This document shows, piece by piece, positions 1,723-63,469 of a stretch of DNA of 64,000 nt. The notes beneath the pieces were generated by a model. That model ran no database searches. It saw only the letters and a list, made by a program, of their open reading frames with translations, and had not been told where the DNA came from. The DNA comes from Vairimorpha necatrix (lineage: Eukaryota), in the NCBI GenBank assembly GCA_036630325.1, contig CP142728.1, forward strand, positions 434,001 to 498,000, in the 5' to 3' direction. The first letter of the stretch is position 1, and the number at the start of each line of letters is the position of its first letter. A program made the position numbers and the translations under genes.

Positions 1723-1902
1723 TGTCGTACCTCCTGCGGAAGTACAACTCCAATAAAGATAAGTTTTGAGTAAATAGTTTATTTCTCTTATCTTCCATAC
1801 CCCTAAGTATGGAATTTTCTTTTATAGTTTTTTTTGTTTGTTTACAGGGTAAACAAATCAAGAAATGTCAAAAATGATATGTTTGACATGTGGGATACCA
1901 CA
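1723..1902 (-). repeat. 3' LTR of family A copy 1
   Basis: Direct repeat of 5638-5817, preceded on the minus strand by the purine tract AAAAGAAGAGGGTAGGA. Confidence 0.97.
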
Positions 1903-1904
1903 TC

Positions 1905-4835
1905 CTACCCTCTTCTTTTAATGTCCTTTATGTGGATCCAGTTGCCTCCTTCTTCTACTTTAACCCAGTTTCCTTTCTTCCCAACCTCTTTGATCGTACA
2001 GGGTCCTTTATATTGTTCATCCATTTTCCCAGCTTTGACATCTCTTACAAATACTTTATCATTTATTTTTAATTTTTTATCGTTATTCTGGTTCAGTGTG
2101 GCTGGAACTGATTTGTATTTTGGTTCCTTTAGGTTGCTTTGTCGTCTGAATGGGTCAAAAAAGCTGTATTGTTTCTCTAATTCGAATGGAGAACATCCAA
2201 TAGTTCTTTTGTAATTTACGTTAAGTTTAATGTTAATTTTATTTGTTATGTCGTTGATGTTATTTAGCTTGTTTATCCTTAGACATTCAGCTATTATACT
2301 GTTTTGCCTTTCTGCCATTCCGTTGCTTTGTGGATGGTATATTGGAGTGTTAACGAGTTTAATTCCTCTACTTTTCTCATATTTTTCTCTGAGTTTTTCT
2401 CCGGTAAATTGTGTGCCATTGTCCATGATAATTTTTTCTGGCTGTTGAAATTCTTGTATCCATTTATCTATACATTTTATTATTGTATCTTCCGTTATGT
2501 TATATAGAAGGTATACCCTTGAAATTCTTGAGTAAACGTCTGTTATGCAAAGGTAATAAGCCTTATAATGGATTGTATCATGTTCAAAATTTTCAAGTTC
2601 AAATGGTCCAAATATGTCCATGGCTATTGTTCCGTAAATTTTATCAGATTCGATCTGTAATTTCTGAGTTTTGACTTTCTCTTTCTTATTTAAGTTACAC
2701 ATTCTGCAATTTTTTGTTATTGCTATTATTTTGTTCTTTAATCCAATTATGTTGTAGAAAGGAGAGAGATTCTTGTTTAATACTACGATTCCTGGGTGGC
2801 CGGCTAGTTCATGTATTTTTGTTATAAAATTTTCTGCTTCGGTGTTTTTGATCATTATTTTGTCATCTTTATTTCTTTCCCAGTTTTCCTTTCCGGATTT
2901 ATCGTCTGATATTTTTTCTACATATTGTTCTATTATATTCGTAAGGTTATTTCCATGTCTGACATTTTCTATTTTAAAACATCTTGATAGGTAGTCAGCT
3001 ACTGAGTTATTCTCTCCTGCGATTTGTTTTATGCAGTAATTGTGCTCTATCATCATCGCGTCCCATCTTTCTATTCTTCTGCTTATTTTGCTTTTAAATA
3101 GACAATTCCTGTTATCTGTATAGATTTCGACGTAATTTCCGAGTACTATGTTTCTGCACTTATCCATCGCGTATACTATTGCAAAGTATTCTTTTTCCAC
3201 TATTGTATAATTTCTTTCAGTTTTATTAAATTTCATGCTTATATTTAAAATTATTCCGTGTTCTTGTGATAGTACTGCGCCCATTCCTAGTTCAGAGGCG
3301 TCGCAATGTAGTGTAAATTTTTTACTGTAGTCTGGCAGTACTAGATGGCTATTGTTCTTTAGTGTACTTACTAATTTGTTTATTATTAGATTGTCTTCTT
3401 TTGTTAGCTTGACTTTTTTTTCGTTTCCTTTTAGCTTTTCGGTTAAGCTTAGAATTTCTAGACTTAAGTTTGGAATGTATTTTCTGTACCAATTAAATAT
3501 GCCAATTATTTTTTGCAGGTCTTTTTTAGTGTGGCATTTCATGTTTTCTGTTAGTTTACAGTCTTTCGTGAGAGGGTACATTTTTCCGTTAAAAATTCTT
3601 GTTCCTAGGATTTCGGTGTCCTTTGTGCAAAACTCTGATTTTGCGAAATTTACATTTACATTGTAATGTTTCAATCTTGTGAACAGTTCTTTAAGCGTAT
3701 TGAGGTGTGATTCGTAGTCCTTTGTGGCAATTATTATGTCGTCTATATATACTGAAATGTTATTTATCCCGAAAAGTATTTTGTTCATGATTTTCTGAAA
3801 AGCTTTTGGTCCATTTTTTAATCCAAAAGGAAGTCTTTTGTACCTGAATGTTTTACCAAATATCGAAAATGCTGTCCATTTTCTGCTATCTTTTGCTAGG
3901 AGTAATTGATTAAACCCGTTTGTCAAGTCTAATTTGCTTATTACTTCGCTTTTACCAAGTTGATAAATAATATCGTCCATTTTGGGTATTATTTCCACTT
4001 CATCTTCAACAAAGTTATTTATTTCTCTATAGTCTACTATTAATCTCATTTTCCCATTTTTCTTTTTCTTAAAAAATGCGGGACTTGTGTATCTTTCATT
4101 ACATTCTTCTATTATGTCAGCGGTTATAAGTCGTTGTATTTCGGCTATTGCATCTTCTTTAAAGTTTGATGGTACGGCATAGTTAATTTTCTTACATTTT
4201 ATGTCGTTGTTTGAAACTTGTAATTTAACGTGATCTGTGTTTATAGGACAATTTTCTTTGATTTCTCTTTTATAATTATCTATAATTTCCCTAAGTCTTT
4301 CTTCTTCCTTAGTGATAAGTATTTTTCCTGGGGGTTTTTCGAATTCTGTTTCTTCTGCATTTGTTTTCATATTTACGGTTGCGTTGTTCCAGATTATTTT
4401 CTTTCTTGTAAAATCTAATATAATATCGATTCTCGACATGAAATCTCTACCAAGTATAATATTGACTGGTAGGTTTTTTAATAAGTAAAATTCAATCTTG
4501 CATGTCTCGTTTTGATCCTTTAATTTTAAGTCGAGTTCTATTGTAGTGTTAGTTTTTTCACTAGATTTATTACCGAACATTACCTGGATCTCTTTGTTTT
4601 CTCTAGTGGTGATGTTCCATTGTTCTACGAGGTCTGCTTTTATAAAGTTTAATCCTGCTCCGCAGTCTATAGTTCCTGTTGACTCATGTTTTGTGTTGAT
4701 TATGAGTGGGATATCGAGTTGTTCGACAATGTTAGGATTTTCTAAAATAACATAGTTTAAAGAGTTTTTATTTTCCCTGGGCTCTGAAGTCTTTCTCGTT
4801 GTATTTTTTAAATTTTGATTGGTATCGGGAACTAC
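1905..4835 (-). CDS. pol: Pol polyprotein frame (aspartic protease, RT, RNase H, integrase)
   Basis: Frame stays open upstream of the 4580 ATG through the protease motif IDCGAG; RT LPFGLKNGP/YIDD; RNase H CDAS..GAVL; integrase HHCC and D,D-35-E (MDIFGP, MDNGTQF, NGMAER); GP-type C-terminus. Confidence 0.92.
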   Translation of the reverse strand, partial: VVPDTNQNLKNTTRKTSEPRENKNSLNYVILENPNIVEQLDIPLIINTKHESTGTIDCGAGLNFIKADLVEQWNITTRENKEIQVMFGNKSSEKTNTTIELDLKLKDQNETCKIEFYLLKNLPVNIILGRDFMSRIDIILDFTRKKIIWNNATVNMKTNAEETEFEKPPGKILITKEEERLREIIDNYKREIKENCPINTDHVKLQVSNNDIKCKKINYAVPSNFKEDAIAEIQRLITADIIEECNERYTSPAFFKKKKNGKMRLIVDYREINNFVEDEVEIIPKMDDIIYQLGKSEVISKLDLTNGFNQLLLAKDSRKWTAFSIFGKTFRYKRLPFGLKNGPKAFQKIMNKILFGINNISVYIDDIIIATKDYESHLNTLKELFTRLKHYNVNVNFAKSEFCTKDTEILGTRIFNGKMYPLTKDCKLTENMKCHTKKDLQKIIGIFNWYRKYIPNLSLEILSLTEKLKGNEKKVKLTKEDNLIINKLVSTLKNNSHLVLPDYSKKFTLHCDASELGMGAVLSQEHGIILNISMKFNKTERNYTIVEKEYFAIVYAMDKCRNIVLGNYVEIYTDNRNCLFKSKISRRIERWDAMMIEHNYCIKQIAGENNSVADYLSRCFKIENVRHGNNLTNIIEQYVEKISDDKSGKENWERNKDDKIMIKNTEAENFITKIHELAGHPGIVVLNKNLSPFYNIIGLKNKIIAITKNCRMCNLNKKEKVKTQKLQIESDKIYGTIAMDIFGPFELENFEHDTIHYKAYYLCITDVYSRISRVYLLYNITEDTIIKCIDKWIQEFQQPEKIIMDNGTQFTGEKLREKYEKSRGIKLVNTPIYHPQSNGMAERQNSIIAECLRINKLNNINDITNKINIKLNVNYKRTIGCSPFELEKQYSFFDPFRRQSNLKEPKYKSVPATLNQNNDKKLKINDKVFVRDVKAGKMDEQYKGPCTIKEVGKKGNWVKVEEGGNWIHIKDIKRRG

Positions 4836-5713
4836 TGTCTTTTGTAGTTGTTGAATTTTTCGTGTTTTACTTTGCTCATATTCGATCGATTTGTTTCATT
4901 GCTTTGCCCGCAGTCTCTCGTTGTATGTCCCAAAGTTTTGTGGACTTTACACCATTTTTTCATGAATCTTATACCTGAGGTGTTATTTAGCTTTCTCGGT
5001 ATGTTAAATCTTGTTATTATGTTTTCTTCAATTCTTTTTAGGGCTGGTATGATTTCGGGTAGTGTTTCGAAGTTTTGTTCCTCGAGATATCTTACTGTTT
5101 CTAAGCCTAGTCCTCTGTATAGAGATTCCTTTGATCTTCGTTCATATTCTTTCATGCTACAGTTGGATACTTTACTGTAGATAGTTAATCGATTCATGAT
5201 TTCGTTTACATAGTCGTCGAAGAAGATGTGGTCAGTCTGTTTGAGATTACTCAGTTCTGCTATTAAGTTCTCGACCCTTTTCTGTGAAAATACTTTGGAC
5301 ATGATGTATTTTTTGTTCTCTTCATAATCATCTTTCAATTTGGTTTTATCTATAATCTGATCTTCTATAAGATCGTATAAAAAGAGCCTTTTAGTTTCTT
5401 CATTCCATTGGTTCCTTTGGAAAATTTCTTCGATCTTTTTGAACCATCCTAGTAGATCGATTTCGAATATGTCGTTGATCAGTTCTACATTCTTAGTGAT
5501 TCCTAGATCCACTTCACCTGTCTTAATTCTTATGGTGACTACTTTTGTTTCTTGAATTTTGGAGTTGTGCCCTGCGATTTCTCTTCCTAGCGTGGGTGGG
5601 AGTTCATTATATTTGTACTCTCTTATTGAATTCAATATGTCGTACCTCCTGCGGAAGTACAACTCCAATAAAGATAAGTTTTGAGTAAATAGTTTATTTC
5701 TCTTATCTTCCAT
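4832..5713 (-). CDS. gag: Gag-like protein with CX2HX4HX4C knuckle
   Basis: ATG at 5713 lies inside the 5' LTR after GGGGT; WCKVHKTLGHTTRDC; colinear with the N-terminus of ORF 29670-33479. Confidence 0.88.
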   Translation of the reverse strand: MEDKRNKLFTQNLSLLELYFRRRYDILNSIREYKYNELPPTLGREIAGHNSKIQETKVVTIRIKTGEVDLGITKNVELINDIFEIDLLGWFKKIEEIFQRNQWNEETKRLFLYDLIEDQIIDKTKLKDDYEENKKYIMSKVFSQKRVENLIAELSNLKQTDHIFFDDYVNEIMNRLTIYSKVSNCSMKEYERRSKESLYRGLGLETVRYLEEQNFETLPEIIPALKRIEENIITRFNIPRKLNNTSGIRFMKKWCKVHKTLGHTTRDCGQSNETNRSNMSKVKHEKFNNYKRQ

Positions 5714-5817
5714 ACCCCTAAGTATGGAATTTTCTTTTATAGTTTTTTTTGTTTGTTTACAGGGTAAACAAATCAAGAAATGTCAAAAATGATATGTTTG
5801 ACATGTGGGATACCACA
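5638..5817 (-). repeat. 5' LTR of family A copy 1
   Basis: Direct repeat of 1723-1902; followed by palindrome TATTGAATTCAATA (5624-5637). Confidence 0.97.
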
Positions 5818-5859
5818 GTATGATATTTGAGTTTTTGCGATTTTATTAAAAAATTATGT

Positions 5860-9108: not shown

Positions 9109-9458
9109 TGTCATGTATCCGGGGTACATGGCCATTTTTATAATATCTCTCTAAATAGTTTTTAATGTAAATATGTTTATTGATGGTTTTAATCTCTCTC
9201 TTGGATTCTATATATTCCATACCCTTCACAGACAGACTTTCTTTTATAGTTTATTTTTAATTTGAAGATTCTTGTCAACACTAACCTACAAACTTTGGCG
9301 TACTTACGAATGTAGTAACGACCATGCAACTTTCGTTTGTTTGTTTGTTTGTGTGACTCATCTTGACATGTAACTTGAAATGCTTGACATGTCTTTGGTC
9401 ATAAGTGATAGATGACATATTTGACATCTGTTCATGTGATGTAGCAATGTACATCACA
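9109..9458 (-). mobile_element. Solo LTR, family B
   Basis: 350 bp, near-identical reverse complement of LTR 61374-61723; TG..CA; TSD GATGC (9104-9108, 9459-9463). Confidence 0.96.
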
Positions 9459-26591: not shown

Positions 26592-26829
26592 TTATTTTGA
26601 TTTGTTAGATATTATTTATAAATTATAAAAAGGAGTGGACTTACCAATGAGACACATTAAACATGTAAAAATAAAAAATAATTTTTTTTTTATTGTGGCA
26701 GAAACAATATTTTATAGAAAAACAGATCCTGTTGTATAAGCGCATGATATAGTTAATGTACATATATTATTGGTTAAGAAAATGATCTTATTGCGTTAAA
26801 AACGAAAATATCAAATTAATATGATTTAA

Positions 26830-27630
26830 GGTGCCCTTAGCACAGTGGTAGAATGCTATGCTTCCATTGAGCAATGGCTGGGTTCGATTCCCAGGGGCAC
26901 CAAAATTGTTTCTACTTTCTATGATGCAGTTGGAACAACTCAGATGATGAAAATGTCCACGATAATCATTAAGTTGATTCAATGAAACTTGTGTGTGTCC
27001 AGCCACAAGAGGATTAGCATCTAGTGTAGAAACGCACCTCAAGGCCAAAAAGCAGTATCGCCCTTTGGTGACTTAATGATACATAAAAGTATCTAATGGG
27101 TACGGCCTAGTTGGAGCCCATCGCTGGTGCACTCTAAAGTAGGATCCTAGAGCTAACTAAGAGACTAGACGAAGTAGGGCAATAGAAGATCTCGTGGACC
27201 CTATCCTACATGATTCTGTAACACGGTGGCCGAAACTAGTGGGAGACTGGTGGTCAACGCAGCCCAATAAAAACGCCGGGCTGGGGATGTGGTCGTGTAA
27301 GGAGCCGTGTGTGCAATACGGATGATTGTAGGTACCTTTGAGTCAGTACGATAATGTCTCTCCTCGGGTTATAGATAACCATGCCCGTTAAGTATATCCG
27401 CTGTGAGGTCACTCTGGACGCGATTTGAGGTATAAATGGAAAGTGTTCTCCTGGAGCCAAAGTCCAATGGATACGGCGGAGCTTGCTGCACCGGCAAGTG
27501 TATGGAGGGAGTTTTAGTGAGTAAGAATCTCACAGTACCAGTTGGATGAGGATCACACCCAAATCCCTCTGGTCCCTATGTAAGGTTTCTCCCTACCTCT
27601 TACTTGCAAGAAAAAAAAAAAAAAAAAAAA
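26830..27630 (+). mobile_element. tRNA-derived SINE-like element, full-length young copy
   Basis: tRNA-like head 26830-26902 with A box TAGCACAGTGG (26838-48) and B box GGTTCGATTCC (26881-91); ~700-nt non-coding body; ~A20 tail; TSD AAATTAATATGATTTA (26813-28, 27629-44); 4 other homologous copies in the window. Confidence 0.9.
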
Positions 27631-29281: not shown

Positions 29282-29564
29282 CAATGGAACAAAACTAGTG
29301 CAATGTAAGAAATTTATATATCATAGCAGCAATCAAATCCGGATTATTAAACATTTTAAGCTTTTAAAGTTAAGTCTGGCGTGCTGCTCAGGGTTGCGAC
29401 CTGTTCTAAAGTAATATACTAAACAACTAATGGCCTTGCCGCCTGTCCTTAGCAGGCTTTTCTTTTTTTAAAATTAATGTGTTAATGTCCCTCTCTTCAT
29501 GTATGGAGGCATTGGGACAAAAATATGAAGAAGGGAACCTATTTGAAAATAATAAATTACCTTC

Positions 29565-32500
29565 TGTGGTATCCCACATGTCAAACATATCATTTTTGAC
29601 ATTTCTTGATTTGTTTACCCCGTAAACAAACAATAAAAAATTATAAAAGAAAATTCCATACTTAGGGGTATGGAAGATATAAGAAATAAACATTATAGGT
29701 TTAACTTATCTTTATTGGAGTTGTACTTCCGCAGGAGGTACGACATATTGAATTCAATAAGAGAGTACAAACATCATGAACTCCAACCCACGCGAGGAAA
29801 AGAAATCGCAGGACACAACTCTAAAACTCAAGAAGCAAAAGTAGTCTCTATAAGAATTAAGACAGGTGAAGTGGACCTAGGAATCACCAAAAATGTAGAA
29901 ATGATTAACGATATCTACGAAATCGATCTACTAGGATGGTTTAAGAAAATTGAAGAAATTTTCCAAAGGAATCAATGGAACGAAGAGACAAAAAAGCTAT
30001 TTTTATTCGATCTCATTGAAGATCAGATTATAGACAAAGCCAATTTGAAAGATAACTACGAAGAAAACAAGAACTACATCATTTCACAGGTGTTCTCACA
30101 GAAAAGAGTCGAGAACTTAATAGTAGAACTGGATAATCTAAAACAAACTGACTACATTTTCTTTGATAACTACATAAACGAAATCATGAAACGAGTAACC
30201 ATCTACAGTAAAGTATCTAATTGCAGCCAGAAAGAATACGAACGAAGATCAAAGGAATCCATTTACAGAGGACTTGGCTTAGAAACGGTAAGATATCTTG
30301 AGGAACAAAACCTCGAAACACTACTTGAAATCATACCAGCCCTGAAAAGAATGGAAGAAAACATCATAACAAGATTTAACATACCGAGGAAGATAAACAA
30401 CATCTCAGGTATAAGATTCATGAAAAAGTGGTGTAAAGTCCACAAAACTCTGGGACATACAACGAGAGATTGCGGGCAAAGCAACGAAACAAATCGATCA
30501 AATATTAGCAAAGTTAAAAACGAAAAATTTAACCTCAACAAGAAGACAGTAGCTCCCGATACCAACTTGAACCTAAAGAATACAACGAGGAAGATTTCAG
30601 AACCCAGAGAAAATAAAAACTCTTTAAACTACGTTAGTTTAGAAAATCCTACTATTGTCGAACAACTCGACATTCCACTCATAATCAATAAGAAACACGA
30701 GTCAACAGGAACTCTAGACTGTGGAGCAGGATTAAACTTCATCAAAGCAGACCTCGTAGAACAATGGAGCCTTACCACCAGAGAAAGTAAAGAGATCCAG
30801 GTAATGTTTGGAAATAAATCAAACGAAACCACCAGTACGTTAATAGAATTAGAATTACAGCTGAAGGGGAAAAACGAAACATGTAAAATAGAATTATATC
30901 TATTACAAAACTTACCGGTTAATATATTACTTGGCAGAGACTTTATATCGAGAAATGAAATTATACTTGACTTTACAAGAAGGAAAATAATTTGGAACAA
31001 CTCAACCATGAGTATGAAAACTAATCAAGAAGAAACAGAATTCCAAAAACCTTTTGAGAAAACACTCATTACAAAAGATGAAGCAAGATTACATAAAATC
31101 ATAGATGACTATAAAAGCAAAATTAAAGAAAACGACCCAATAAACACAGATCAAGTCAAATTACAAGTGTCTAAAAACAACATAAAGCTTAAGAAAATTA
31201 ATTATGCAGTACCTTCAAACTACAAAGAAGACGCAATACTAGAAATAGAACGACTATTAGACTCTAATATAATCGAGGAATGCAACGAAAGGAACACCAG
31301 CCCCGAATTCTTTAAGAAAAAGAAAAACGGCAAGATAAGACTAGTAATAGACTACAGAGAAATTAATAACTTTATCGAAGACGAAGTAGAAATAATTCCA
31401 AAGATGGACGATATCATTTATCAAATCGGAAAAAGCGAAGTAATAAGCAAATTGGACCTGACGAATGGATTTAACCAATTACTCCTAACAGAAGAAAGCA
31501 GGAAATGGACAGCATTCTCTATATTCGGCAAAACATTCAGATACAAAAGACTCCCTTTCGGATTAAAAAATGGCCCCAAAGCATTCCAGAAAACAATGAA
31601 CAAAATACTCTTCGGAATCAAAAATATATCGGTATACATAGACGACATAATTATAGCCACGAAGGACTACGAGTCTCATCTGAACACACTCAAAGAATTA
31701 TTTACAAGGCTACAGAAGCACAACGTAATTGTAAACTTCGCTAAATCAGAATTCTGCACCAAAGACACAGAAATTCTAGGAACAAGAATCTTTAACGGTA
31801 AAATGTACCCTCTCACTAAAGACAGTAAACTAATCGAAAACATGAAATGTAAAACCAAAAAAGACCTACAGAAAATAATAGGAATATTCAATTGGTATAG
31901 GAAATACATCCCAAATTTAAGCTTAGAAATTTTAAATTTAACAGAAAAACTAAAAGGGAAAGAACAGATAGTTAAACTAACTAAAGAAGACAATTCAACG
32001 ATAAATAAGCTAATAGACAAACTAAAAAATAAAAGCTACCTAGTACTACCAGACTATAGCAAAAAATTTACACTACACTGCGACCCTTCAGAACTCGGAA
32101 TGGGAGCAGTATTATCACAGGAACACGGAATAATACTAAATATAAGCATGAAGTTCAATAAAACAGAAAGAAATTACACAATAGTAGAGAAAGAATACTT
32201 CGCGATAGTCTACGCAATGGACAAATGTAGAAACATTATACTTGGAAATTATGTCGAAATACACACGGATAATAGGAACTGCCTTTTTAAAAGCAAAATA
32301 AGCAGAAGAATGGAAAGATGGGACGCGATGATGCTAGAATACAACTACAGTATAAAACAAATAGCTGGGGAAGACAACACCGTAGCAGATCATCTATCAA
32401 GATGTTTCAGAACAGAAAAAGCTAAGAACGAAAACGATCTAATAAATACAATAGAATTATATGCAGAGAAAATATCTGAAAATAAATCTGGGACAAAAAA

Positions 32501-33663
32501 CTGGAAAAAGAACAAAGATGATAAAATAATAATTAAAAACTCCGAATCCGAAAACTTCCTAAAAAAGATGCATGAAATTGCTGGTCACCCAGGAATAGTC
32601 GTATTGAACAAAAATTTATCTCCCTTTTACAGCATCAACGGAATAAAAAGCAAGATAATTAATGTAACAAAAAACTGCAAAATATGCAACCTAAACAAGA
32701 AAGAAAAAGTAAAAATTCAGAAATTACAAATAACCTCCGATAAAATGTACGGAACGGTTGCAATGGACATATTTGGACCATTTGAACTCGAAAATTTCAT
32801 CCATGAAGATATTCATCACAAAGCATATTATCTGTCCATAACAGATGTCTATTCAAGAGTCTCAAGGGTATACCTACTGTATAACATCACGGAAAATACC
32901 ATAATAAAATGTATAGATAAATGGATACAAGAATTCCAACAGCCGGAAAAAATTATCATGGACAATGGCACTCAATTCACAGGCGAAAAACTAAGAGAAA
33001 AATACGGAAACTGTAAGGGAATTAAACTTATAAACACCCCAATATATCATCCACAAAGTAACGGAATGGCTGAAAGACAAAACAGCATAATAGCTGAGTG
33101 CTTAAGAATGAATAGATCTAATAACATCAGAGAAACAACAAATAAAATCAACATCAAGCTAAACGTCAATTATAAAAGAATAATCGGATGCTCACCATTC
33201 GAACTGGAGAAAAAATACAGTTTCTTTGACCCATTCAAAAGGCAAACCACCAACAAAGAACCTAAAAATAAAACAACTCCCATTATTCCAAACCTTAATA
33301 ATGATAAAAAATTACAAATAAACGAAAAAGTATTTATTAAAGAATTCAACGCCGGTAAGATGGATGAACAGTATAAAGGACCATACACAATCAAAGAAAT
33401 TGGAAACAAGGGAATCTGGGCCAGAGTGAACGAAGGAGGAAATTGGATCCACATAAAAGACATTAAAAGAAGAGGGTAGGATGTGGTATCCCACATGTCA
33501 AACATATCATTTTTTGACATTTCTTGATTTGTTTACCCCGTAAACAAACAATAAAAAATTATAAAAGAAAATTCCATACTTAGGGGTATGGAAGATATAA
33601 GAAATAAACATTATAGGTTTAACTTATCTTTATTGGAGTTGTACTTCCGCAGGAGGTACGACA
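29565..33663 (+). mobile_element. Ty3/Gypsy LTR retrotransposon, family A copy 2 (single open gag-pol ORF)
   Basis: LTRs 29565-29745 and 33482-33663 (differ by one T in a T-run); TSD CCTTC (29560-64, 33664-68); PPT ~33465-33481. Confidence 0.97.
29670..33479 (+). CDS. gag-pol: Gag-Pol polyprotein (gag, PR, RT, RNase H, integrase)
   Basis: 1269 aa; CX2HX4HX4C knuckle, LDCGAG, YIDD, HHCC, DDE, GPY; starts inside the 5' LTR and stops inside the PPT. Confidence 0.96.
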   Translation: MEDIRNKHYRFNLSLLELYFRRRYDILNSIREYKHHELQPTRGKEIAGHNSKTQEAKVVSIRIKTGEVDLGITKNVEMINDIYEIDLLGWFKKIEEIFQRNQWNEETKKLFLFDLIEDQIIDKANLKDNYEENKNYIISQVFSQKRVENLIVELDNLKQTDYIFFDNYINEIMKRVTIYSKVSNCSQKEYERRSKESIYRGLGLETVRYLEEQNLETLLEIIPALKRMEENIITRFNIPRKINNISGIRFMKKWCKVHKTLGHTTRDCGQSNETNRSNISKVKNEKFNLNKKTVAPDTNLNLKNTTRKISEPRENKNSLNYVSLENPTIVEQLDIPLIINKKHESTGTLDCGAGLNFIKADLVEQWSLTTRESKEIQVMFGNKSNETTSTLIELELQLKGKNETCKIELYLLQNLPVNILLGRDFISRNEIILDFTRRKIIWNNSTMSMKTNQEETEFQKPFEKTLITKDEARLHKIIDDYKSKIKENDPINTDQVKLQVSKNNIKLKKINYAVPSNYKEDAILEIERLLDSNIIEECNERNTSPEFFKKKKNGKIRLVIDYREINNFIEDEVEIIPKMDDIIYQIGKSEVISKLDLTNGFNQLLLTEESRKWTAFSIFGKTFRYKRLPFGLKNGPKAFQKTMNKILFGIKNISVYIDDIIIATKDYESHLNTLKELFTRLQKHNVIVNFAKSEFCTKDTEILGTRIFNGKMYPLTKDSKLIENMKCKTKKDLQKIIGIFNWYRKYIPNLSLEILNLTEKLKGKEQIVKLTKEDNSTINKLIDKLKNKSYLVLPDYSKKFTLHCDPSELGMGAVLSQEHGIILNISMKFNKTERNYTIVEKEYFAIVYAMDKCRNIILGNYVEIHTDNRNCLFKSKISRRMERWDAMMLEYNYSIKQIAGEDNTVADHLSRCFRTEKAKNENDLINTIELYAEKISENKSGTKNWKKNKDDKIIIKNSESENFLKKMHEIAGHPGIVVLNKNLSPFYSINGIKSKIINVTKNCKICNLNKKEKVKIQKLQITSDKMYGTVAMDIFGPFELENFIHEDIHHKAYYLSITDVYSRVSRVYLLYNITENTIIKCIDKWIQEFQQPEKIIMDNGTQFTGEKLREKYGNCKGIKLINTPIYHPQSNGMAERQNSIIAECLRMNRSNNIRETTNKINIKLNVNYKRIIGCSPFELEKKYSFFDPFKRQTTNKEPKNKTTPIIPNLNNDKKLQINEKVFIKEFNAGKMDEQYKGPYTIKEIGNKGIWARVNEGGNWIHIKDIKRRG

Positions 33664-37037: not shown

Positions 37038-37816
37038 TTTTTTTTCTCTGCAAGTAAGAGGTAGGGAGAAACCTTACATAGGAACCAGAGGGATTTAATG
37101 TGATCCTTATCCAACTGGTATTGTGAGATTTTTACTCACTAAAATTTCTTCCATACAAATTGCAGGTGCAGCAGGCTCCGCCGTATCCATTAGACTTTGG
37201 CCCCAGTAGAACACTTCCCATTTAAACAAGAATTCGCATCCAGAGCGACCTCGCAGAGGATATACTTAACGGGCATGGTTATCTATAACCCGAAGAGAGG
37301 CATCATCGTACTGACTCAAAGGTCTCTACAATCATCTGTAATGCAAATACGGCTTCTTACACGACCACATCACCAGCCCGGCATTTTTATTAAGCTGCGC
37401 TTACCACTAACTTCGGCCACCGTGTTACAAGATCTCGTAGGATAGGTTCATCGAGGCTTTTTATTGCCCTATTTCGTCTTGTCTCTTAGAGAGCTCTAGG
37501 ATCCTACATTAGAGTGCACAAGCCATGGGCTCCAATTAGACCGTACATATCGGATACTTTTAAATTTTATTATGCTACCACAAGTGTGACACTATTTTAG
37601 TTCTTGAGATGCGTTTCTACACTAGATGCTAATCCCCTTGTGTCTAGAAACACAACAGGTTTCATTGAAACAACTATATGATTATCGCGGACATTTTCAT
37701 CATCTAAGTTGTTCCAACTACACCATAGAATGTATAAACAATTTTGGTGCCTCTAAGATTCGATTCCAGCTATTGGTCAATGGAAGCATCGCCTTCGACC
37801 ACTAGACCAAGGGCAC
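37038..37816 (-). mobile_element. tRNA-derived SINE-like element, second full-length copy
   Basis: Colinear with 26830-27630 end to end; A box TGGTCTAGTGG, decayed B box, A8 tail; no TSD seen. Confidence 0.9.
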
Positions 37817-38349
37817 ATTTGGTTCATACACTATGATAATTATTTATATTCCGAAGAAAGAATAATAGCATGCTGGTATGATAAAAATATAAACCACGCC
37901 AAGAATAAAAATGTCTATGCAATTGTGAAACATTTTACTCGCCAATTCCCGCCTTTGTTCAACTTTTCGTAGTATTTATTATAGATGAACTTTTTTTTAC
38001 TTCTATTGCTTATTTTTTTCTACCAAATAAAAAATATGAAACTTATCTGGAAGCTTTTCAAATACTATTCATTTTGGCAAAGATTAAAAAATGAATAGTA
38101 TGATAATATATCTTATATTCGTCTATACATGTTGCATTGCAAAGTGTATATTGAGACACCAGAAAACGATTTTGTGATTTACTTATTCAGATTCGGGTTT
38201 GAAAAAAATTCTAATCAATGATTTTTTCTAAATTATACAAGAATGTAAGATTTTTAATTTTACATCAAATTACCGCATTGTTTAATATATATCAGTGAAG
38301 AAAAAAATACTCAAATGCAATTAAGTTTTATGTATATATGGTTTTAAAA

Positions 38350-39310: not shown

Positions 39311-41648
39311 GGTTCTAGGAAAATTCACCGACCATCAATTCACCGACATCAATTCACCGACAGCAATTCACCGAAAATCAATTCACCGACCAACAAATTC
39401 ACCGACAACAAATTCACCGACAACAAATTCACCGACAACAAATTCACCGAAAAATTATAATATGTATTTTTTATGGGTATATTTATGATATACATATTTA
39501 ATTTAAATTTTTTTTTTGTATGGATCATAAATATTGTGCAATATAGCATTTGAATATTACTATATTTATATCACTAAATAAATTAAAAAATAGGAAAAGT
39601 ATCAAAATGTTCATTAAAAATTAATCTGAAAAGAAAGATTATGAAACAACGCGACAACAGCTCCTCAAAATTATGACATAAAATGTACTAGTATACTTGT
39701 AACATTAATGTTTTTACATTGCATTGGGGTGTAATGTTCTATCTAGACATATTGTAATAAAGTCTCATCCAATTCGATACCAAAGTGCAATGAAGGTATC
39801 TTAGGCACAATTGGTAAGGCGCAGGTTTGCGAAGAAAGATCTATACTTTACTTAAAATGGCACAACTCTTTTTAAATATTTTAACATTTTAATTCTGAAC
39901 CCCTAATTTCAATAATGCAGATCGAATATTTACTCTCAGAAAAGGGGAAGAAAAAATTAATTTTAGAAGGTCATCTTTTCTTTAAAGAAAAAGATGTTTG
40001 GGAACTATCCAAAATATATTGGAAATGTGAATACTATCAAAAGTGCAAGTGTAGAGTGATTACAATGTCTAATGGGGAAATTAAAGTGTTTGGCGAACAC
40101 AACCATTCGGGAGATGCTGCTAAAGTCGAAGCAGATAAAATATATGCTAATGTTCGAGCCTTGGCAAAAAGCTCTAGAGAAGCGCCACAATCTATTATAT
40201 CAGATTGTTTATCTCTATGCAGCCATGCTGCAGCTCCAAAATTGCCATCGATTGACAGTATGAAGCGTAGCGTTCGGTATATTCGACAAATTGCAGAAAC
40301 TAGCCCCGCACTCCCAAATTCGCGGCAAGAAATTACATTCACAGACGAATTCAAAGAAACGACAAGAGGGGAACCCTTTTTGCTATATGATTCTGGACCA
40401 GATGAAAACAGAATTTTATTTTTTCGACGACTCACAATTTACGGCTTTTGGCAGATAGTCAACACTGGTACGCAGATGGCACCTTTAAAACCGTACCATT
40501 ATTATTTCATCAACTGTACACAATTCACGGGCTAAAACAAAGTGCTTCTATTCCCTTGGTCTTCGCTTTATTGCCAAATAAATTAGAGCAAACGTATTCT
40601 AAATTTCTTTGCACTTTAAAAGAGTTGGAACCATCATTAAATCCGCAATCCATAACTGTAGATTTTGAAAAAGCCATGATGAATGCTATTTCAGTACAGT
40701 TTCCTGGTGCAAGTGTCTAAGGATGCTTTTTTCATTTCTCACAGTGCATTTTTCGAGCAGTTCAAAATCATGGACTCAAACTACTGTACAATACAGATCC
40801 AGAATTTGCACTGCAAATAAGATCGCTGGCCGCCATAGCATTTGTACCTTCCAATTTTGTTGTTGAAGTTTTTGAAGAATTGTCTGACAGAATACTGCCC
40901 ATCGAAGCTCTGCCCGTCTTAGATTATTTTGAAGATACTTGGATTGGCCGCCCAAACCGAAGACAGCGTCGAGCCCCGAAATTTGCATCAGAGATATGGA
41001 ATATGTACTCCAGAACAATAGATGGTCTACCGAGGACTAACAACTCGGTCGAAGGTTGGCATCGTGGGTTCGAGTCGCAAGCTGGTGGTACTCACCTGAA
41101 TATTTGGAAGTTTATCAATTGCTTAAAAAAGGAACAATCTCTAAATGAAGTTCGAATAGAACAATTTTTTTCTGGTTTTAATGCTCCTACGTCTAAAAAA
41201 AATATCGCGATTGTAGAACGAGACTTCTAAATATAGTGTCCAATTTTAATCGAGAAAATATTATAGAATATATTCATGCCATTGCCCATAATCTGACATT
41301 TTAATAATAAATTATTAGATTTTATGTTTTCTATTATTTTTAATTAGTTTTTTATGTTTATGATCATTTTGATACTTTTCCTATTTTTTAATTTATTTAG
41401 TTATATAAATATAGTAATATTCAAATGCTATATTGCACAATATTTATGATCCATACACAAAAAAAATTTAAATTAAATATGTATATCATAAATATACCCA
41501 TAAAAAATACATATTTCAATTTTTCGGTGAATTTGTTGTCGGTGAATTTGTTGTCGGTGAATTTGTTGGTCGGTGAATTGATTTTCGGTGAATTGCTGTC
41601 GGTGAATTGATGTCGGTGAATTGATGGTCGGTGAATTCTCCGGACACC
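39311..41648 (+). mobile_element. Mutator-superfamily (FLYWCH-MULE, Phantom-like) DNA transposon with foldback-type TIRs
   Basis: ~300-bp TIRs (39311-~39615, ~41358-41648) starting GGT, with 9 and 8 tandem AATTCACCGA units; 9-bp TSD AAGAAAAGA (39302-10, 41649-57). Confidence 0.95.
39915..41304 (+). pseudogene. MULE transposase with N-terminal FLYWCH zinc finger, disrupted
   Basis: YWKC..C.CR..HNH; WYADGTFK; VDFEKA; GCFFHFSQC; RTNNSVEGWH; frameshifts in a T-run (~40420) and an A-run (~41200); in-frame TAA 40718-20. Confidence 0.92.
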
Positions 41649-60275: not shown

Positions 60276-61373
60276 ATTATAGGTTTAATTTATTTTTTAT
60301 TAAAGTTACGTTGAAAAATATTTTTAGGGTTGTTAAATTTTTTTTTAGTTTATTGTGCAATCTATCATTTTTACATAAATACATGCATGATAGTCGTTAA
60401 TAGTTGAATTATTCCTATAATTTAAGGTTTAGATATCTTTTTAGTTAAATAGAAAAAATGGATTAAATTTTACTATAAATGTAATTATGAGCGTTTCGTC
60501 TTATCCTGACTTACGATATAAAAGTGCAAAAATAAAAATATTGCATTGTTTTTAGTCTAATATTAATATTGTGGTAAAAAAATCTAGAGGTTGAATCTTA
60601 GATATAATAATCATCATGAATAGAATAGCAGAATCGAAACGTGCATTTACAATTTATTTAATATACTTATAGGTTCATAATATAATGATGATTGGGCGAT
60701 AATATTGAAATCTATAATAACATTCACATTAACTTTGAACAATGCAGCCTAGAAAAAAAAAGCTTAAGACTTATAAAAAAAAGAGCGTTTGAAGAACAAG
60801 GTCAACTAGATTATCATTTAACCCATATTAATATTACTCCTATAAGCCAAATCCTCGCTGTCAATGTTTACGTAATTGTATAAACGAATAGATACGACAA
60901 TACATTTTCTCAAAAACGGTATATATGTTTAACAAAATCTGTTTACAAGCAGCTTCGTTGAAACCACAATGTATTTGAAAATTCCAACCTTATAAACTTA
61001 AATTAAATATAGGGTCTTAAATATGTAAACGATGTGATGTGAAAATTTATCAGTACTAAATCAATTACTGACGTCTTTGATCATTAAATATTCCGAAAAC
61101 TAACTGTTAACAGTAAATTAATATCTATATTCTGTCTTAATTCTCGGGTGCCGCGTGTTTTTGATTTTAATTCACAAAAAAATTATATTAATATACAACT
61201 TTATGATTCGTTAGAAAAAGTTTACATTTAATTAACTTTACATAAACCATGGATTCAAGATAAAAAAGACATCTATAAAAATACCATGTGCGTTTAAACA
61301 ATTAATGTATTTAGATAATGTAGGATTTATAATCCTTAATAAATAAATTGTTAGCATAATGTAAATTAGGTTC

Positions 61374-63469
61374 TGTGATGTACATTGCTACATCACATGA
61401 GCAGATGTCAAATATGTCATCTGTCACCGATGTCCAAAGACATGTCAAGCATTTCAAGTTACATGTCAAGATGAGTCACACAAACAAACAAACAAACGAA
61501 AGTTTCATGGTCGTTACTACATTCGTAAGTACGCCAATGTTTGTAGTTTAGTGTTGACAAGAATCTTTAAATTAAAAATAAACTATAAAAGAAAGTCTGT
61601 CTGTGAAGGGTATGGAATATATAGAATCCAAGAGAGAGACTAAAACCATCAATAAACATATTTACATTAAAAACTATTTAGAGAGATATTATAAAAATGG
61701 CCATGTACCCCGGATACATGACATAATTGAATTCAATTCCCACAAAGTATCAAAAGGGGACAACAACGCAGTAATTAAAGAAGCGTTAGAATTTAAGTAT
61801 ACGATCGAAGAGATCGATTTAGAAGTAAAAAAAAACTTAAGTATAATAAAAAACATAAAAGAATTTAATGAAATGGAGCTAGATACATGGTTTGAGGATT
61901 TCAACCAAATCAGCAGAAATAAAAAATGGGATTTTAAAAAAGAAAAAATCGCCTTAGGAGAATTAGTGCGAGATCCCACATTGCAACAAATATTTGGATT
62001 ACCAGATTTAGAAAAAATAAGAAGATATATTGAAAAAAATGTAAGTCAAAGATCAAGTCCTGAGATGCTACATTTAAAGCTACAGGCATGTAAACAAATT
62101 AATTTCAGATACATTAAAGAATATTTGTTTGAAATAAAGAATCTAGTAGATCAGTATGCTAGACTAGAAAACTTAACGAGAAAAGAATACGAAAGAAAGT
62201 TAAGAGAGAGTTTTTTCTTGGGATTAGGTTTTTCCACTCGTCTTAAGATATTAGAGCTTGGAAAAAATAACGTCGAAGAAACCATGACGTATTTAGAAAC
62301 AGTGGAAGAGTGTTTGATTTTTGAAGGAAAAAGGCGTGAAATAACATATGAATCAGTTCATAATGATAGATTCAAGTTTGAGACCGAAAAGGACGGTTAC
62401 AAGAACAATAAATGGTGCCGCCTCCATAAAAACAGTACGCACAATACAGAGGATTGCTTTAGACTAAACAATACCTCAGAGCAGCTTAAGAAAAATTTAG
62501 AAAACATAAAAATGTCGAATATTGTTCCAGAAAAATTATTTACAATTAGAGAAATAAAGAAAAATAACATACCAGAAGAGGTAGTATTTAATAGAGAAAA
62601 TAAAGTCGAGAACATTAAAATAAAAAATCAAGAAGTAACTAATAAAGAAAATTCAAAAGAAGTGAAAACAAAACATGAAACATCGAAAAATGATGAAATA
62701 ATAGCGAAAACGCTTAGCCATGAGAAACTACAGAATGTAGTTGGAACAAATATATTAAAAGAGAAGGATTTAATTGTCAAAAGAAATACAGATATTGACA
62801 AGAAGCTTAACAATCCGATGAAAAATATAGAAAAAGAAAATAAAAAAGATGATAATAAAAGAAATCGAGGTAATAAATTAATAAAAATAAAATACCGTGA
62901 TAAATATAAACAAAAGAAGACATATAAAATAAGAAAGAAAAAAAATGAAATATTAGAAAGTATAAACACGAAGAAAAAGCAAAAAATGTTAAGTAGTGTT
63001 ATAGATAAAGCAATAGTAGACCCGCCGAATATAATATCTAAACATGAAGGGTGGTCAGCAACATGCAACAATGAATGGAGAACTTTAAAAAATTTAAAGC
63101 TTTAGGAGAGGGCAGAATGTGATGTACATTGCTACATCACATGAGCAGATGTCAAATATGTCATCTGTCACCGATGTCCAAAGACATGTCAAGCATTTCA
63201 AGTTACATGTCAAGATGAGTCACACAAACAAACAAACAAACGAAAGTTGCATGGTCGTTACTACATTCGTAAGTACGCCAATGTTTGTAGTTTAGTGTTG
63301 ACAAGAATCTTTAAATTAAAAATAAACTATAAAAGAAAGTCTGTCTGTGAAGGGTATGGAATATATAGAATCCAAGAGAGAGAGACTAAAACCATCAATA
63401 AACATATTTACATTAAAAACTATTTAGAGAGATATTATAAAAATGGCCATGTACCCCGGATACATGACA
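61374..63469 (+). mobile_element. Non-autonomous gag-only LTR retrotransposon, family B
   Basis: LTRs 61374-61723 and 63118-63469 (one substitution and a 2-bp indel seen); TSD GGTTC (61369-73, 63470-74); PPT AGGAGAGGGCAGAA; no RT/RH/INT core. Confidence 0.95.
61612..63105 (+). CDS. gag: Gag-like protein with K/N/E-rich C-terminal extension
   Basis: ATG in the 5' LTR after GGGT; WFEDF..W, LKQ-like, KEYERK..F.GLG, WCRLHKNSTHNTEDC; homologous to family A gag. Confidence 0.88.
   Translation: MEYIESKRETKTINKHIYIKNYLERYYKNGHVPRIHDIIEFNSHKVSKGDNNAVIKEALEFKYTIEEIDLEVKKNLSIIKNIKEFNEMELDTWFEDFNQISRNKKWDFKKEKIALGELVRDPTLQQIFGLPDLEKIRRYIEKNVSQRSSPEMLHLKLQACKQINFRYIKEYLFEIKNLVDQYARLENLTRKEYERKLRESFFLGLGFSTRLKILELGKNNVEETMTYLETVEECLIFEGKRREITYESVHNDRFKFETEKDGYKNNKWCRLHKNSTHNTEDCFRLNNTSEQLKKNLENIKMSNIVPEKLFTIREIKKNNIPEEVVFNRENKVENIKIKNQEVTNKENSKEVKTKHETSKNDEIIAKTLSHEKLQNVVGTNILKEKDLIVKRNTDIDKKLNNPMKNIEKENKKDDNKRNRGNKLIKIKYRDKYKQKKTYKIRKKKNEILESINTKKKQKMLSSVIDKAIVDPPNIISKHEGWSATCNNEWRTLKNLKL

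Follow-up and report, generated by a model that had tools for sequence, protein, structure and literature searches.

Background

A primer binding site (PBS) of the tRNA type is usual in Ty3/gypsy long terminal repeat (LTR) retrotransposons but is not a defining feature of them. To our knowledge, the start of minus-strand synthesis in LTR elements without a tRNA site has been resolved by experiment in Tf1 alone. In Skipper and in the fungal GalEa elements, priming is an acknowledged open question (PMC5006619, PMC5445492). GalEa elements, which are of the copia type, have no tRNA PBS and carry a 9–10-nt palindrome, the Conserved Hairpin Site (CHS), at the LTR boundary, for which the mechanism was left open (PMC5445492). 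CHS is the closest published analogue of the sequence described here, a 12–14-nt palindrome that lies 0–1 nt past the 5' LTR in the retrotransposons A1 and A2 (family A) and B (family B) of Vairimorpha necatrix. The three elements are found in a stretch of 64,000 nt (assembly GCA_036630325.1, contig CP142728.1, positions 434,001–498,000), which is called the window and is numbered from its first nucleotide. The palindrome is very probably a selected self-pairing element that takes the place of a tRNA PBS.

As in GalEa, there is no tRNA PBS, a palindrome is present at the 5' LTR, the target-site duplications (TSDs) are 5 bp, the LTRs have TGT..CA termini and there is a single open reading frame (ORF); a Tf1-type complement in the LTR was not found by the GalEa authors either (PMC5445492). 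Unlike GalEa, the present lineage is gypsy by domain order and falls outside the GalEa clade. The GalEa CHS is 9–10 nt long and takes in the final A of the LTR; the palindrome here has 12–14 nt and starts after the LTR. GalEa also has a complementary sequence 12–41 bp downstream (hairpin), and no such sequence was found here. In comparison with GalEa, compensatory variation across many families is documented in this lineage.

The elements resemble Tf1, Tj1 and sushi in that they are Ty3/gypsy elements with gag and pol in one ORF and no tRNA PBS (PMC4600332, PMC6317226), and in that the primer probably comes from their own RNA. In Tf1, the PBS has its complement in the 5' LTR, at the very start of the mRNA, whereas here the putative PBS is complementary to itself. 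No chromodomain was detected by Pfam on the A1 ORF, and the likeness to these elements described here is one of features. The palindrome also resembles the retroviral dimerization initiation site (DIS) and the Ty1 PAL sequences, which are self-complementary RNA segments that pair two genomic RNAs and whose palindromicity is conserved (PMC6844567, PMC5445492). These differ in that they coexist with a tRNA PBS and are away from the U5 boundary, and the DIS is about 6 nt and is found in a hairpin loop. A survey of microsporidian transposable elements describes microsporidia-specific gypsy groups with a single polyprotein, and the terms PBS, primer and palindrom do not occur in its available text (PMC4202319). 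The literature outside subscription papers yielded no report of a PBS that is palindromic in Ty3/gypsy elements, whether microsporidian or not.

Palindromes at the 5' LTR boundary

The elements, their LTRs and the palindromes are as follows.

29565–33663, forward strand: element A1, a complete 4099-bp single-ORF Ty3/gypsy LTR retrotransposon; TSD CCTTC at 29560–64 and 33664–68
29565–29745, forward strand: 5' LTR of A1, with ends TGTGGTA...TACGACA
29720–44, forward strand: U5 hairpin of A1, which reaches the LTR terminus
29746–29759, forward strand: A1 palindrome TATTGAATTCAATA, perfect over 14 nt, in the PBS slot; 12-nt core at 29747–58
1723–5817, reverse strand: element A2; TSD CATAC at 5818–22 and 1718–22
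5638–5817 and 1723–1902, reverse strand: LTRs of A2, identical over 180/180 nt
5624–5637, reverse strand: A2 palindrome TATTGAATTCAATA, abutting the 5' LTR
61374–63469, forward strand: element B, a 2.1-kb gag-only LTR element; TSD GGTTC at 61369–73 and 63470–74
61374–61723 and 63118–63469, forward strand: LTRs of B
61725–61738, forward strand: B palindrome AATTGAATTCAATT, 1 nt past the 5' LTR, translated as IEFN
9109–9458, reverse strand: solo LTR of family B; TSD GCATC

The ends of the elements were set independently of the palindromes, from TSDs, polypurine tracts (PPTs) and TG..CA termini. Each of the three window elements with an internal region has its palindrome 0–1 nt past the terminal ACA of the 5' LTR. 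Flanking DNA and no palindrome follows the 3' LTRs and also the solo B LTR, which serves as an internal control. A1, A2 and B all lack a TGG in the 40 nt after the start of the palindrome, i.e., they have no TGG-type PBS. A1 and A2, with an overall identity of only about 83%, are identical across approximately 66 nt that comprise the U5 hairpin, the palindrome and 12 nt past it, which is similar to GalEa, where a block is conserved between families of one species (PMC5445492).

The 12-nt core ATTGAATTCAAT is present exactly three times in the window, compared with 0.05 expected, and none of 100 shuffled sequences reaches three. With one mismatch allowed the count is still three, but 1.99 are then expected and three is reached in 29 of 100 shuffles, which is not significant. 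Palindromes as such are common in this AT-rich sequence: 55 of at least 12 nt (46.6 in shuffles) and 24 of at least 14 nt (13.9 in shuffles). The signal is therefore the position and not the palindrome by itself. Shared 12-mers between A1 and B are expected by chance anywhere in both elements, so only the common position carries weight. MAFFT left the A and B palindromes unaligned because the U5 lengths differ, and the comparison was anchored by hand.

The core is translated in different frames, as LNS within ...YDILNSIRE in family A and as IEFN within ...HDIIEFNSH in family B. The identical 12-mer in two frames shows that conservation is at the nucleotide and not the peptide level. A coding explanation of the palindrome was considered and rejected on the ground that B has the same 12-mer in another frame.

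A preliminary description of the window, made from the sequence, had reported the three palindromes with their shared core, and both sequences and coordinates are exact. The placement directly after the 5' LTR agrees with the independently set LTR ends, the absence of a TGG-initiated PBS holds for the 40 nt examined, and the ORF frames bear out the two different peptides (ILNSI and IIEFNS). That the two LTR families are unrelated is contradicted: the gag proteins of A and B are approximately 30% identical, both have a zinc knuckle of the form C-X2-H-X4-H-X4-C, and both LTRs carry the TATA box TATAAAAGAAA and the start context GGGTATGGAA. Recent insertion, also proposed there, is supported by near-identical LTR pairs (181/182 nt in A1, with no mismatches and one indel) and by a contig of run X1 that connects position 29558 to 33663 and omits 4104 nt. 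The omitted segment equals A1 plus one TSD copy; the contig thus represents an allele with an empty site, which makes the A1 insertion a polymorphism that distinguishes the source of the window from the X1 sample.

Compensatory changes in related elements

Three collections were scanned with a polyprotein alignment. Among 80 gypsy loci from the metagenome scan, only L036 has this gag; the viral scan and the genome_contigs scan, which covers prokaryote genome assemblies, gave 93 loci (79 + 14), of which only L189 (genome_contigs) has it. A search of viral contigs with a DNA pattern of LTR end plus core yielded 29 loci, all attributable to chance, with repeated 18-mers upstream in 0/29. The related sites are listed below; except for L036, they come from one metagenome-assembled genome (MAG), G001.

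L036, metagenome: LTR end ...CCGTCA, spacer T, palindrome TATGAATTCATA; peptide MNSY
L189/L205, MAG G001: LTR end ...ACACGACA, spacer A, palindrome GATGAATTCATC
L203/L210, MAG G001: LTR end ...GCACGGCA, spacer T, palindrome TATGACGTCATA
L204/L211, MAG G001: LTR end ...TTACGCCA, spacer A, palindrome ATTGAATTCAAT
L206/L209, MAG G001: LTR end ...ACATGACA, spacer T, palindrome GCTGATATCAGC

The LTR of L189 is delimited by a PPT and a perfect 8-bp terminal inverted repeat, which is perfect only in this locus. The LTR start of L209 was set from the 3' LTR copy and the PPT, and the LTR ends of L203/L210, L204/L211 and L036 were placed from the CA terminus and homology only. With these boundaries, the palindrome is 0–1 nt past the terminal CA of the 5' LTR in 8/8 copies read at the DNA level, which represent seven families.

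When aligned on the dyad (marked by a slash), the seven sites are TATTGAA/TTCAATA, AATTGAA/TTCAATT, ATTGAA/TTCAAT, TATGAA/TTCATA, GATGAA/TTCATC, TATGAC/GTCATA and GCTGAT/ATCAGC. TGA..TCA is invariant across the seven families and the centre pair is A-T, C-G or T-A. Each of the two outer pairs may be A-T, T-A, C-G or G-C, and they are complementary in every family. Families A, B and L204 have one and the same 12-mer. Co-resident families can differ: A differs from B in the window, and four different palindromes are found in the one MAG.

A TGG within 40 nt is absent from six of the eight copies and is at +14 and +30 in the other two, so that no TGG is conserved. Two more distant gypsy elements from the same MAG, the only TGG controls, have a TGG site in the same slot: L213 (...AACAACA followed by TGGCGACAGCG) and L192. 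The palindrome thus replaces the PBS positionally.

In four loci, the final bases of the LTR are also complementary to those immediately past the palindrome (GAC..GTC in L209, CGAC..GTCG in L189, GGC..GCC in L210 and GTC..GAC in L036). The inverted repeat is thereby lengthened but interrupted, as the CA and the spacer are unpaired. The L213 site (positions 244–261, TGGCGACAGCG) begins like the TGGCGACATCG... site of Dictyostelium DGLT-A, for which no matching tRNA was found according to the available text of PMC5006619. MAG G001 is labelled Clostridium and contains at least seven eukaryotic Ty3/gypsy contigs of this lineage (among L189, L192, L197 and L203–L213), evidently as eukaryotic binning contamination; six of its gypsy contigs match the gag profile and L192 is another gypsy type. 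The L036, L189 and L210 contigs are circularly permuted (pol - LTR - gag, or overlapping ends) with a single LTR, which may reflect multi-copy elements that collapsed in the assembly, or else one-LTR circles among the reads.

Covariation among gag relatives

A profile of the gag region, run against 1.84 billion representatives, matched 689 proteins at E <= 0.001. The best 150 of the 689 were examined, and in 58 of these the N-terminal part is long enough to include the site. There the tetrapeptide is LNS, LSS, LIS, MNS, MSS, MIS, LHA or LYT followed by a variable residue, or one of a few others. The hexapeptide can be back-translated to a perfect palindrome of at least 12 nt with the same codon centre in 55/58 proteins, compared with 31/1500 random hexapeptides taken from the same gag relatives. 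Three proteins are incompatible with a palindrome (P0070, P0134 and P0153).

The first and fourth codons of the site change together. Leucine (TTG) at codon 1 is found with an A-start codon 4 in 37 proteins and with a T-start codon 4 in one, and methionine (ATG) with an A-start codon in none and with a T-start codon in 13; two further leucine rows, where serine at codon 4 allows either start, were left unclassed. The Fisher p value of 3e-11 is uncorrected for phylogeny. The L/M switch was placed on a FastTree phylogeny of gag from which the columns of the site had been removed; it requires at least four changes on well-supported branches and ten on the best tree. Codon 4 switches in the matching direction in 4/4 independent pairs, which with this number of pairs gives a sign test p of 0.125. 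The rare centre variants are compensated as well, i.e., H-A fits CAT-GCA and Y-T fits TAT-ACA. Back-translation predictions were confirmed in DNA for L036, where MNSY is encoded by ATGAATTCAT, and for L206, where a CTG leucine is matched by a G-start alanine.

RNA pairing and searches for a complement

The A1 palindrome has a predicted self-duplex of -15.0 kcal/mol, compared with -1.6 kcal/mol for its hairpin; the predicted duplexes of -15.0 and -13.6 kcal/mol correspond to hairpins of -1.6 and -0.9 kcal/mol. All seven leaders co-fold through the entire palindrome. The centre dinucleotide is self-complementary in all three variants (AT, CG and TA). The stable duplex and the self-complementary centre favor pairing of two molecules over a hairpin. 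A DIS-type kissing loop does not describe the site, as the palindrome has 12–14 nt and there is neither a loop presented on a stem nor a separate PBS.

Other partners for the site were searched for in the elements and in the window. For a Tf1-type complement of the PBS region, the longest exact match within the LTR has 6 nt in A, and B has none of 6 nt or more. In the 200 nt upstream, the best 10-mer complement has 2–4 mismatches in 8/8 copies, unlike a Tf1 site. The same holds for a second copy of the GalEa type (CHSeq2), where the best 10-mer within 120 nt downstream has 2–4 mismatches in 8/8 copies. Neither of the two tRNA genes in the window has convincing complementarity to the site, and an Rfam search with the A1 leader gave no matches.

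Interpretation

The compensatory substitutions keep the site self-complementary, which implies that selection acts on its pairing with a copy of itself, and given the fixed place at the edge of U5, the simplest interpretation is a role in initiation. We give about an even chance to the interpretation that the minus strand is primed at the palindrome, by dimer-based self-priming, in a microsporidian Ty3/gypsy lineage that has given up the tRNA primer. Two genomic RNAs would pair in antiparallel orientation through the palindrome, probably aided by the gag zinc knuckle. The duplex would be cut at its 3' edge by the RNase H of the element, as in Tf1, or by another nuclease, and the resulting 3'-OH would be base-paired with the partner RNA at the first nucleotide of its PBS. 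This 3'-OH could then be extended through U5 and R to give strong-stop DNA, and the plus strand would later copy the palindromic RNA end and recreate the PBS for the second jump. The process would be similar overall to Tf1 self-priming, but intermolecular and symmetric, and the same duplex would link the RNA dimer. For the clade as a whole, we suggest only tentatively a reciprocal trans-priming, a somewhat doubtful extension in which each cut 5' fragment would prime cDNA on the partner RNA, and dimerization and priming would be one structure.

Several points weigh against assigning a priming function. What position and covariation prove is that the PBS slot holds a self-pairing element, and not that this element primes. 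The sign test on the L/M switch has only four pairs, and the Fisher test ignores phylogeny. The seven DNA sites are all Watson-Crick paired, with no G-U pair that would separate RNA pairing from DNA symmetry. Back-translation shows compatibility with a palindrome and not the sequence itself, co-folding is trivially expected for any palindrome, and the tRNA comparison covered only the two tRNAs of the window. We know of no precedent other than Tf1 for a 12-bp RNA duplex cut at its edge.

The palindrome could instead be solely a signal for RNA dimer linkage or packaging, like the retroviral DIS or Ty1 PAL, with the minus strand primed in another way. This is unlikely, although it is a serious candidate: covariation that maintains self-complementarity is typical of a dimerization site, 7/7 leaders co-fold, and palindromes for genomic RNA dimerization have been described for Ty1 (PMC6844567) and around the PBS of mouse mammary tumor virus (PMC8096270). 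However, a dimer signal need not adjoin U5, yet the palindrome is 0–1 nt from it in 8/8 copies from seven families; no other candidate PBS is present (no conserved TGG and no LTR complement), and the relatives with TGG have their PBS in this very slot. The known DIS palindromes are also about 6 nt and are presented in a hairpin loop beside a PBS (PMC5445492). An alternative at the DNA level, a double-stranded site where a dimeric protein (host transcription factor, integrase or gag) keeps the half-sites identical, would account for the perfect Watson-Crick symmetry in 7/7 families, the invariant TGA..TCA and the absence of G-U pairs, and the site is approximately 75 nt (A) to 110 nt (B) downstream of a putative promoter that is placed by motifs. 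It is nevertheless improbable. The variable positions take all four pair types and stay complementary, which suits base pairing, whereas protein recognition would fix the bases or need a co-evolving protein for each family. A host factor does not explain why co-resident families have different palindromes, and the fixed distance from the LTR end is left unexplained.

Pairing within a single RNA is slightly less probable again. Here the palindrome would form a hairpin that primes in cis by snap-back after a cut at the 3' edge, with no dimer. A small hairpin with a 4-nt loop is present in the monomer minimum-energy folds of 7/7 leaders, and the flanking pairs could lengthen the stem in L209, L189, L210 and L036; but the hairpin is weak (-1.6 and -0.9 kcal/mol compared with -15.0 and -13.6 kcal/mol for the duplex), and its two central nucleotides could not pair, yet they are self-complementary (AT, CG, TA) in all DNA variants. 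The least probable explanation is a primer made from a host RNA complementary to the site, which could be half of a tRNA, an internal piece of one or some other small RNA. PBSs of the half-tRNA and internal-tRNA types exist in copia-type elements (PMC6317226, PMC5445492), and the identical 12-mer in A, B and L204 is what a common primer might imprint. Such an RNA would have to be palindromic and differ for each family, over seven different sequences of which four are co-resident in one MAG, which makes this explanation very unlikely. Compensatory change in both halves would be unexpected against a fixed RNA, and neither the window tRNAs nor Rfam provided a candidate.

Dimer-based self-priming is close to what the preliminary description had proposed, namely tRNA-independent priming by an RNA homodimer, or a dimer signal. 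The covariation is consistent with that proposal; the mechanism is still one that we infer. Conservation of palindromicity in other families, which it had named as a test, is borne out by seven perfect families at the DNA level, with compensatory changes, and 55/58 compatible proteins. A palindromic PBS in Skipper, which it had also mentioned, is not: Skipper has a polypyrimidine tract at that place, two ORFs and a chromodomain (PMC5006619), unlike the mixed palindrome here. For Cigr-1, which it had mentioned as well, no paper on this element together with a primer binding site was found.

Structure and relationships of the elements

The remaining features of the elements in the window are as follows.

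29642–52, forward strand: TATA-like box of A1, inside the 5' LTR, identified by motif
29670, forward strand: ATG of the A1 ORF, within the 5' LTR, right after GGG and approximately 20 nt 3' of the TATAAAAGAAA box
29685–90, forward strand: AATAAA in the 5' LTR of A1
29670–33479, forward strand: gag-pol ORF of A1, 1269 aa, which opens in the LTR; palindrome translated as ILNSI
33465–33481, forward strand: polypurine tract aaaagaagagggtagga of A1, adjoining the 3' LTR
33482–33663, forward strand: 3' LTR of A1
63104–17, forward strand: PPT of B
61612–63105, forward strand: gag ORF of B

The limits of U3, R and U5 in A1 are placed by motifs only. Pfam analysis of the A1 ORF shows protease at 338–428, reverse transcriptase at 550–706, RNase H at 771–891, the integrase zinc-binding domain at 957–1011 and the integrase core at 1044–1111. 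This order (protease, reverse transcriptase, RNase H, integrase) is that of Ty3/gypsy elements (Metaviridae). TG..CA LTR termini, a PPT and short TSDs are also found as in Ty3/gypsy elements, with 5-bp TSDs at 4/4 insertions. A2 represents a subfamily with approximately 83% identity to A1 overall. Its ORF (1905–5713, reverse strand) is broken into segments of 293 aa and 891 aa despite the identical LTRs, so that either the damage is very recent or an already defective copy was moved in trans. Element B is non-autonomous and is presumably mobilized in trans.

By sequence, A and B belong to one single-ORF Ty3/gypsy lineage with microsporidian named relatives. The best of these are annotated in Dictyocoela roeselum, Nosema granulosis and Dictyocoela muelleri. 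A microsporidian host also agrees with the window itself, where genes are compactly arranged and the host proteins are divergent. The gag knuckle (approximately 30432–30473 in A1 and 62400–62441 in B) is of the CHHC type, where the usual form is C-X2-C-X4-H-X4-C, and its C, H, H and C are invariant in 12/12 aligned polyproteins. The gag ORF opens inside the 5' LTR in both families, with LTR-encoded segments at 29670–29745 in A1 and 61612–61723 in B. The LTR-encoded N-terminus, NK...S.L..Y...G.VPR.HDI, is maintained at the protein level in many families (P0001 and others), which indicates that R/U5 is coding. L213 also starts its ORF inside the LTR, although its site is of the TGG type.

Other features of the window

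Segments 26828–27497 and 37160–37819 represent an inverted duplication of 81–88% identity with arms approximately 10 kb apart, and it brackets the A1 region. The left arm opens with a tRNA-like gene (26830–26902), which ARAGORN assigns as Met(cat) and which has an odd anticodon arm with the loop TCCATTG and an imperfect stem. At 39318–41641, inverted repeats of approximately 240–320 bp (93–98% identity) surround 1.7 kb that includes an ORF for a FLYWCH zinc finger (39915–40535, E 5e-16), an arrangement that resembles a DNA transposon or something derived from one. A tandem array at 52887–53382 has a 72-nt period, with six overlapping 143-nt copies of 60–78% identity, and is partly within an ORF at 53320–54225 (reverse strand).

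Conclusions

The lineage provides a clean case in which the start of minus-strand synthesis can be tested, with an element of 4.1 kb that was recently active, a gag-only partner and a 12-nt site whose natural variation is in effect a series of compensatory mutants. If the dimer also supplies the primer, the packaging of two RNAs would be coupled mechanistically to the initiation of reverse transcription, which would be relevant to the evolution of retroviral dimer linkage. If trans-priming is true, it would represent a third general solution for the minus strand beside tRNA priming and cis self-priming of the Tf1 type, and possibly the same solution was reached independently by the fungal GalEa copia elements. 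This microsporidian group is abundant, with 689 proteins found by the gag profile, yet it will be overlooked or wrongly classified by LTR-element finders in which a tRNA PBS is obligatory.

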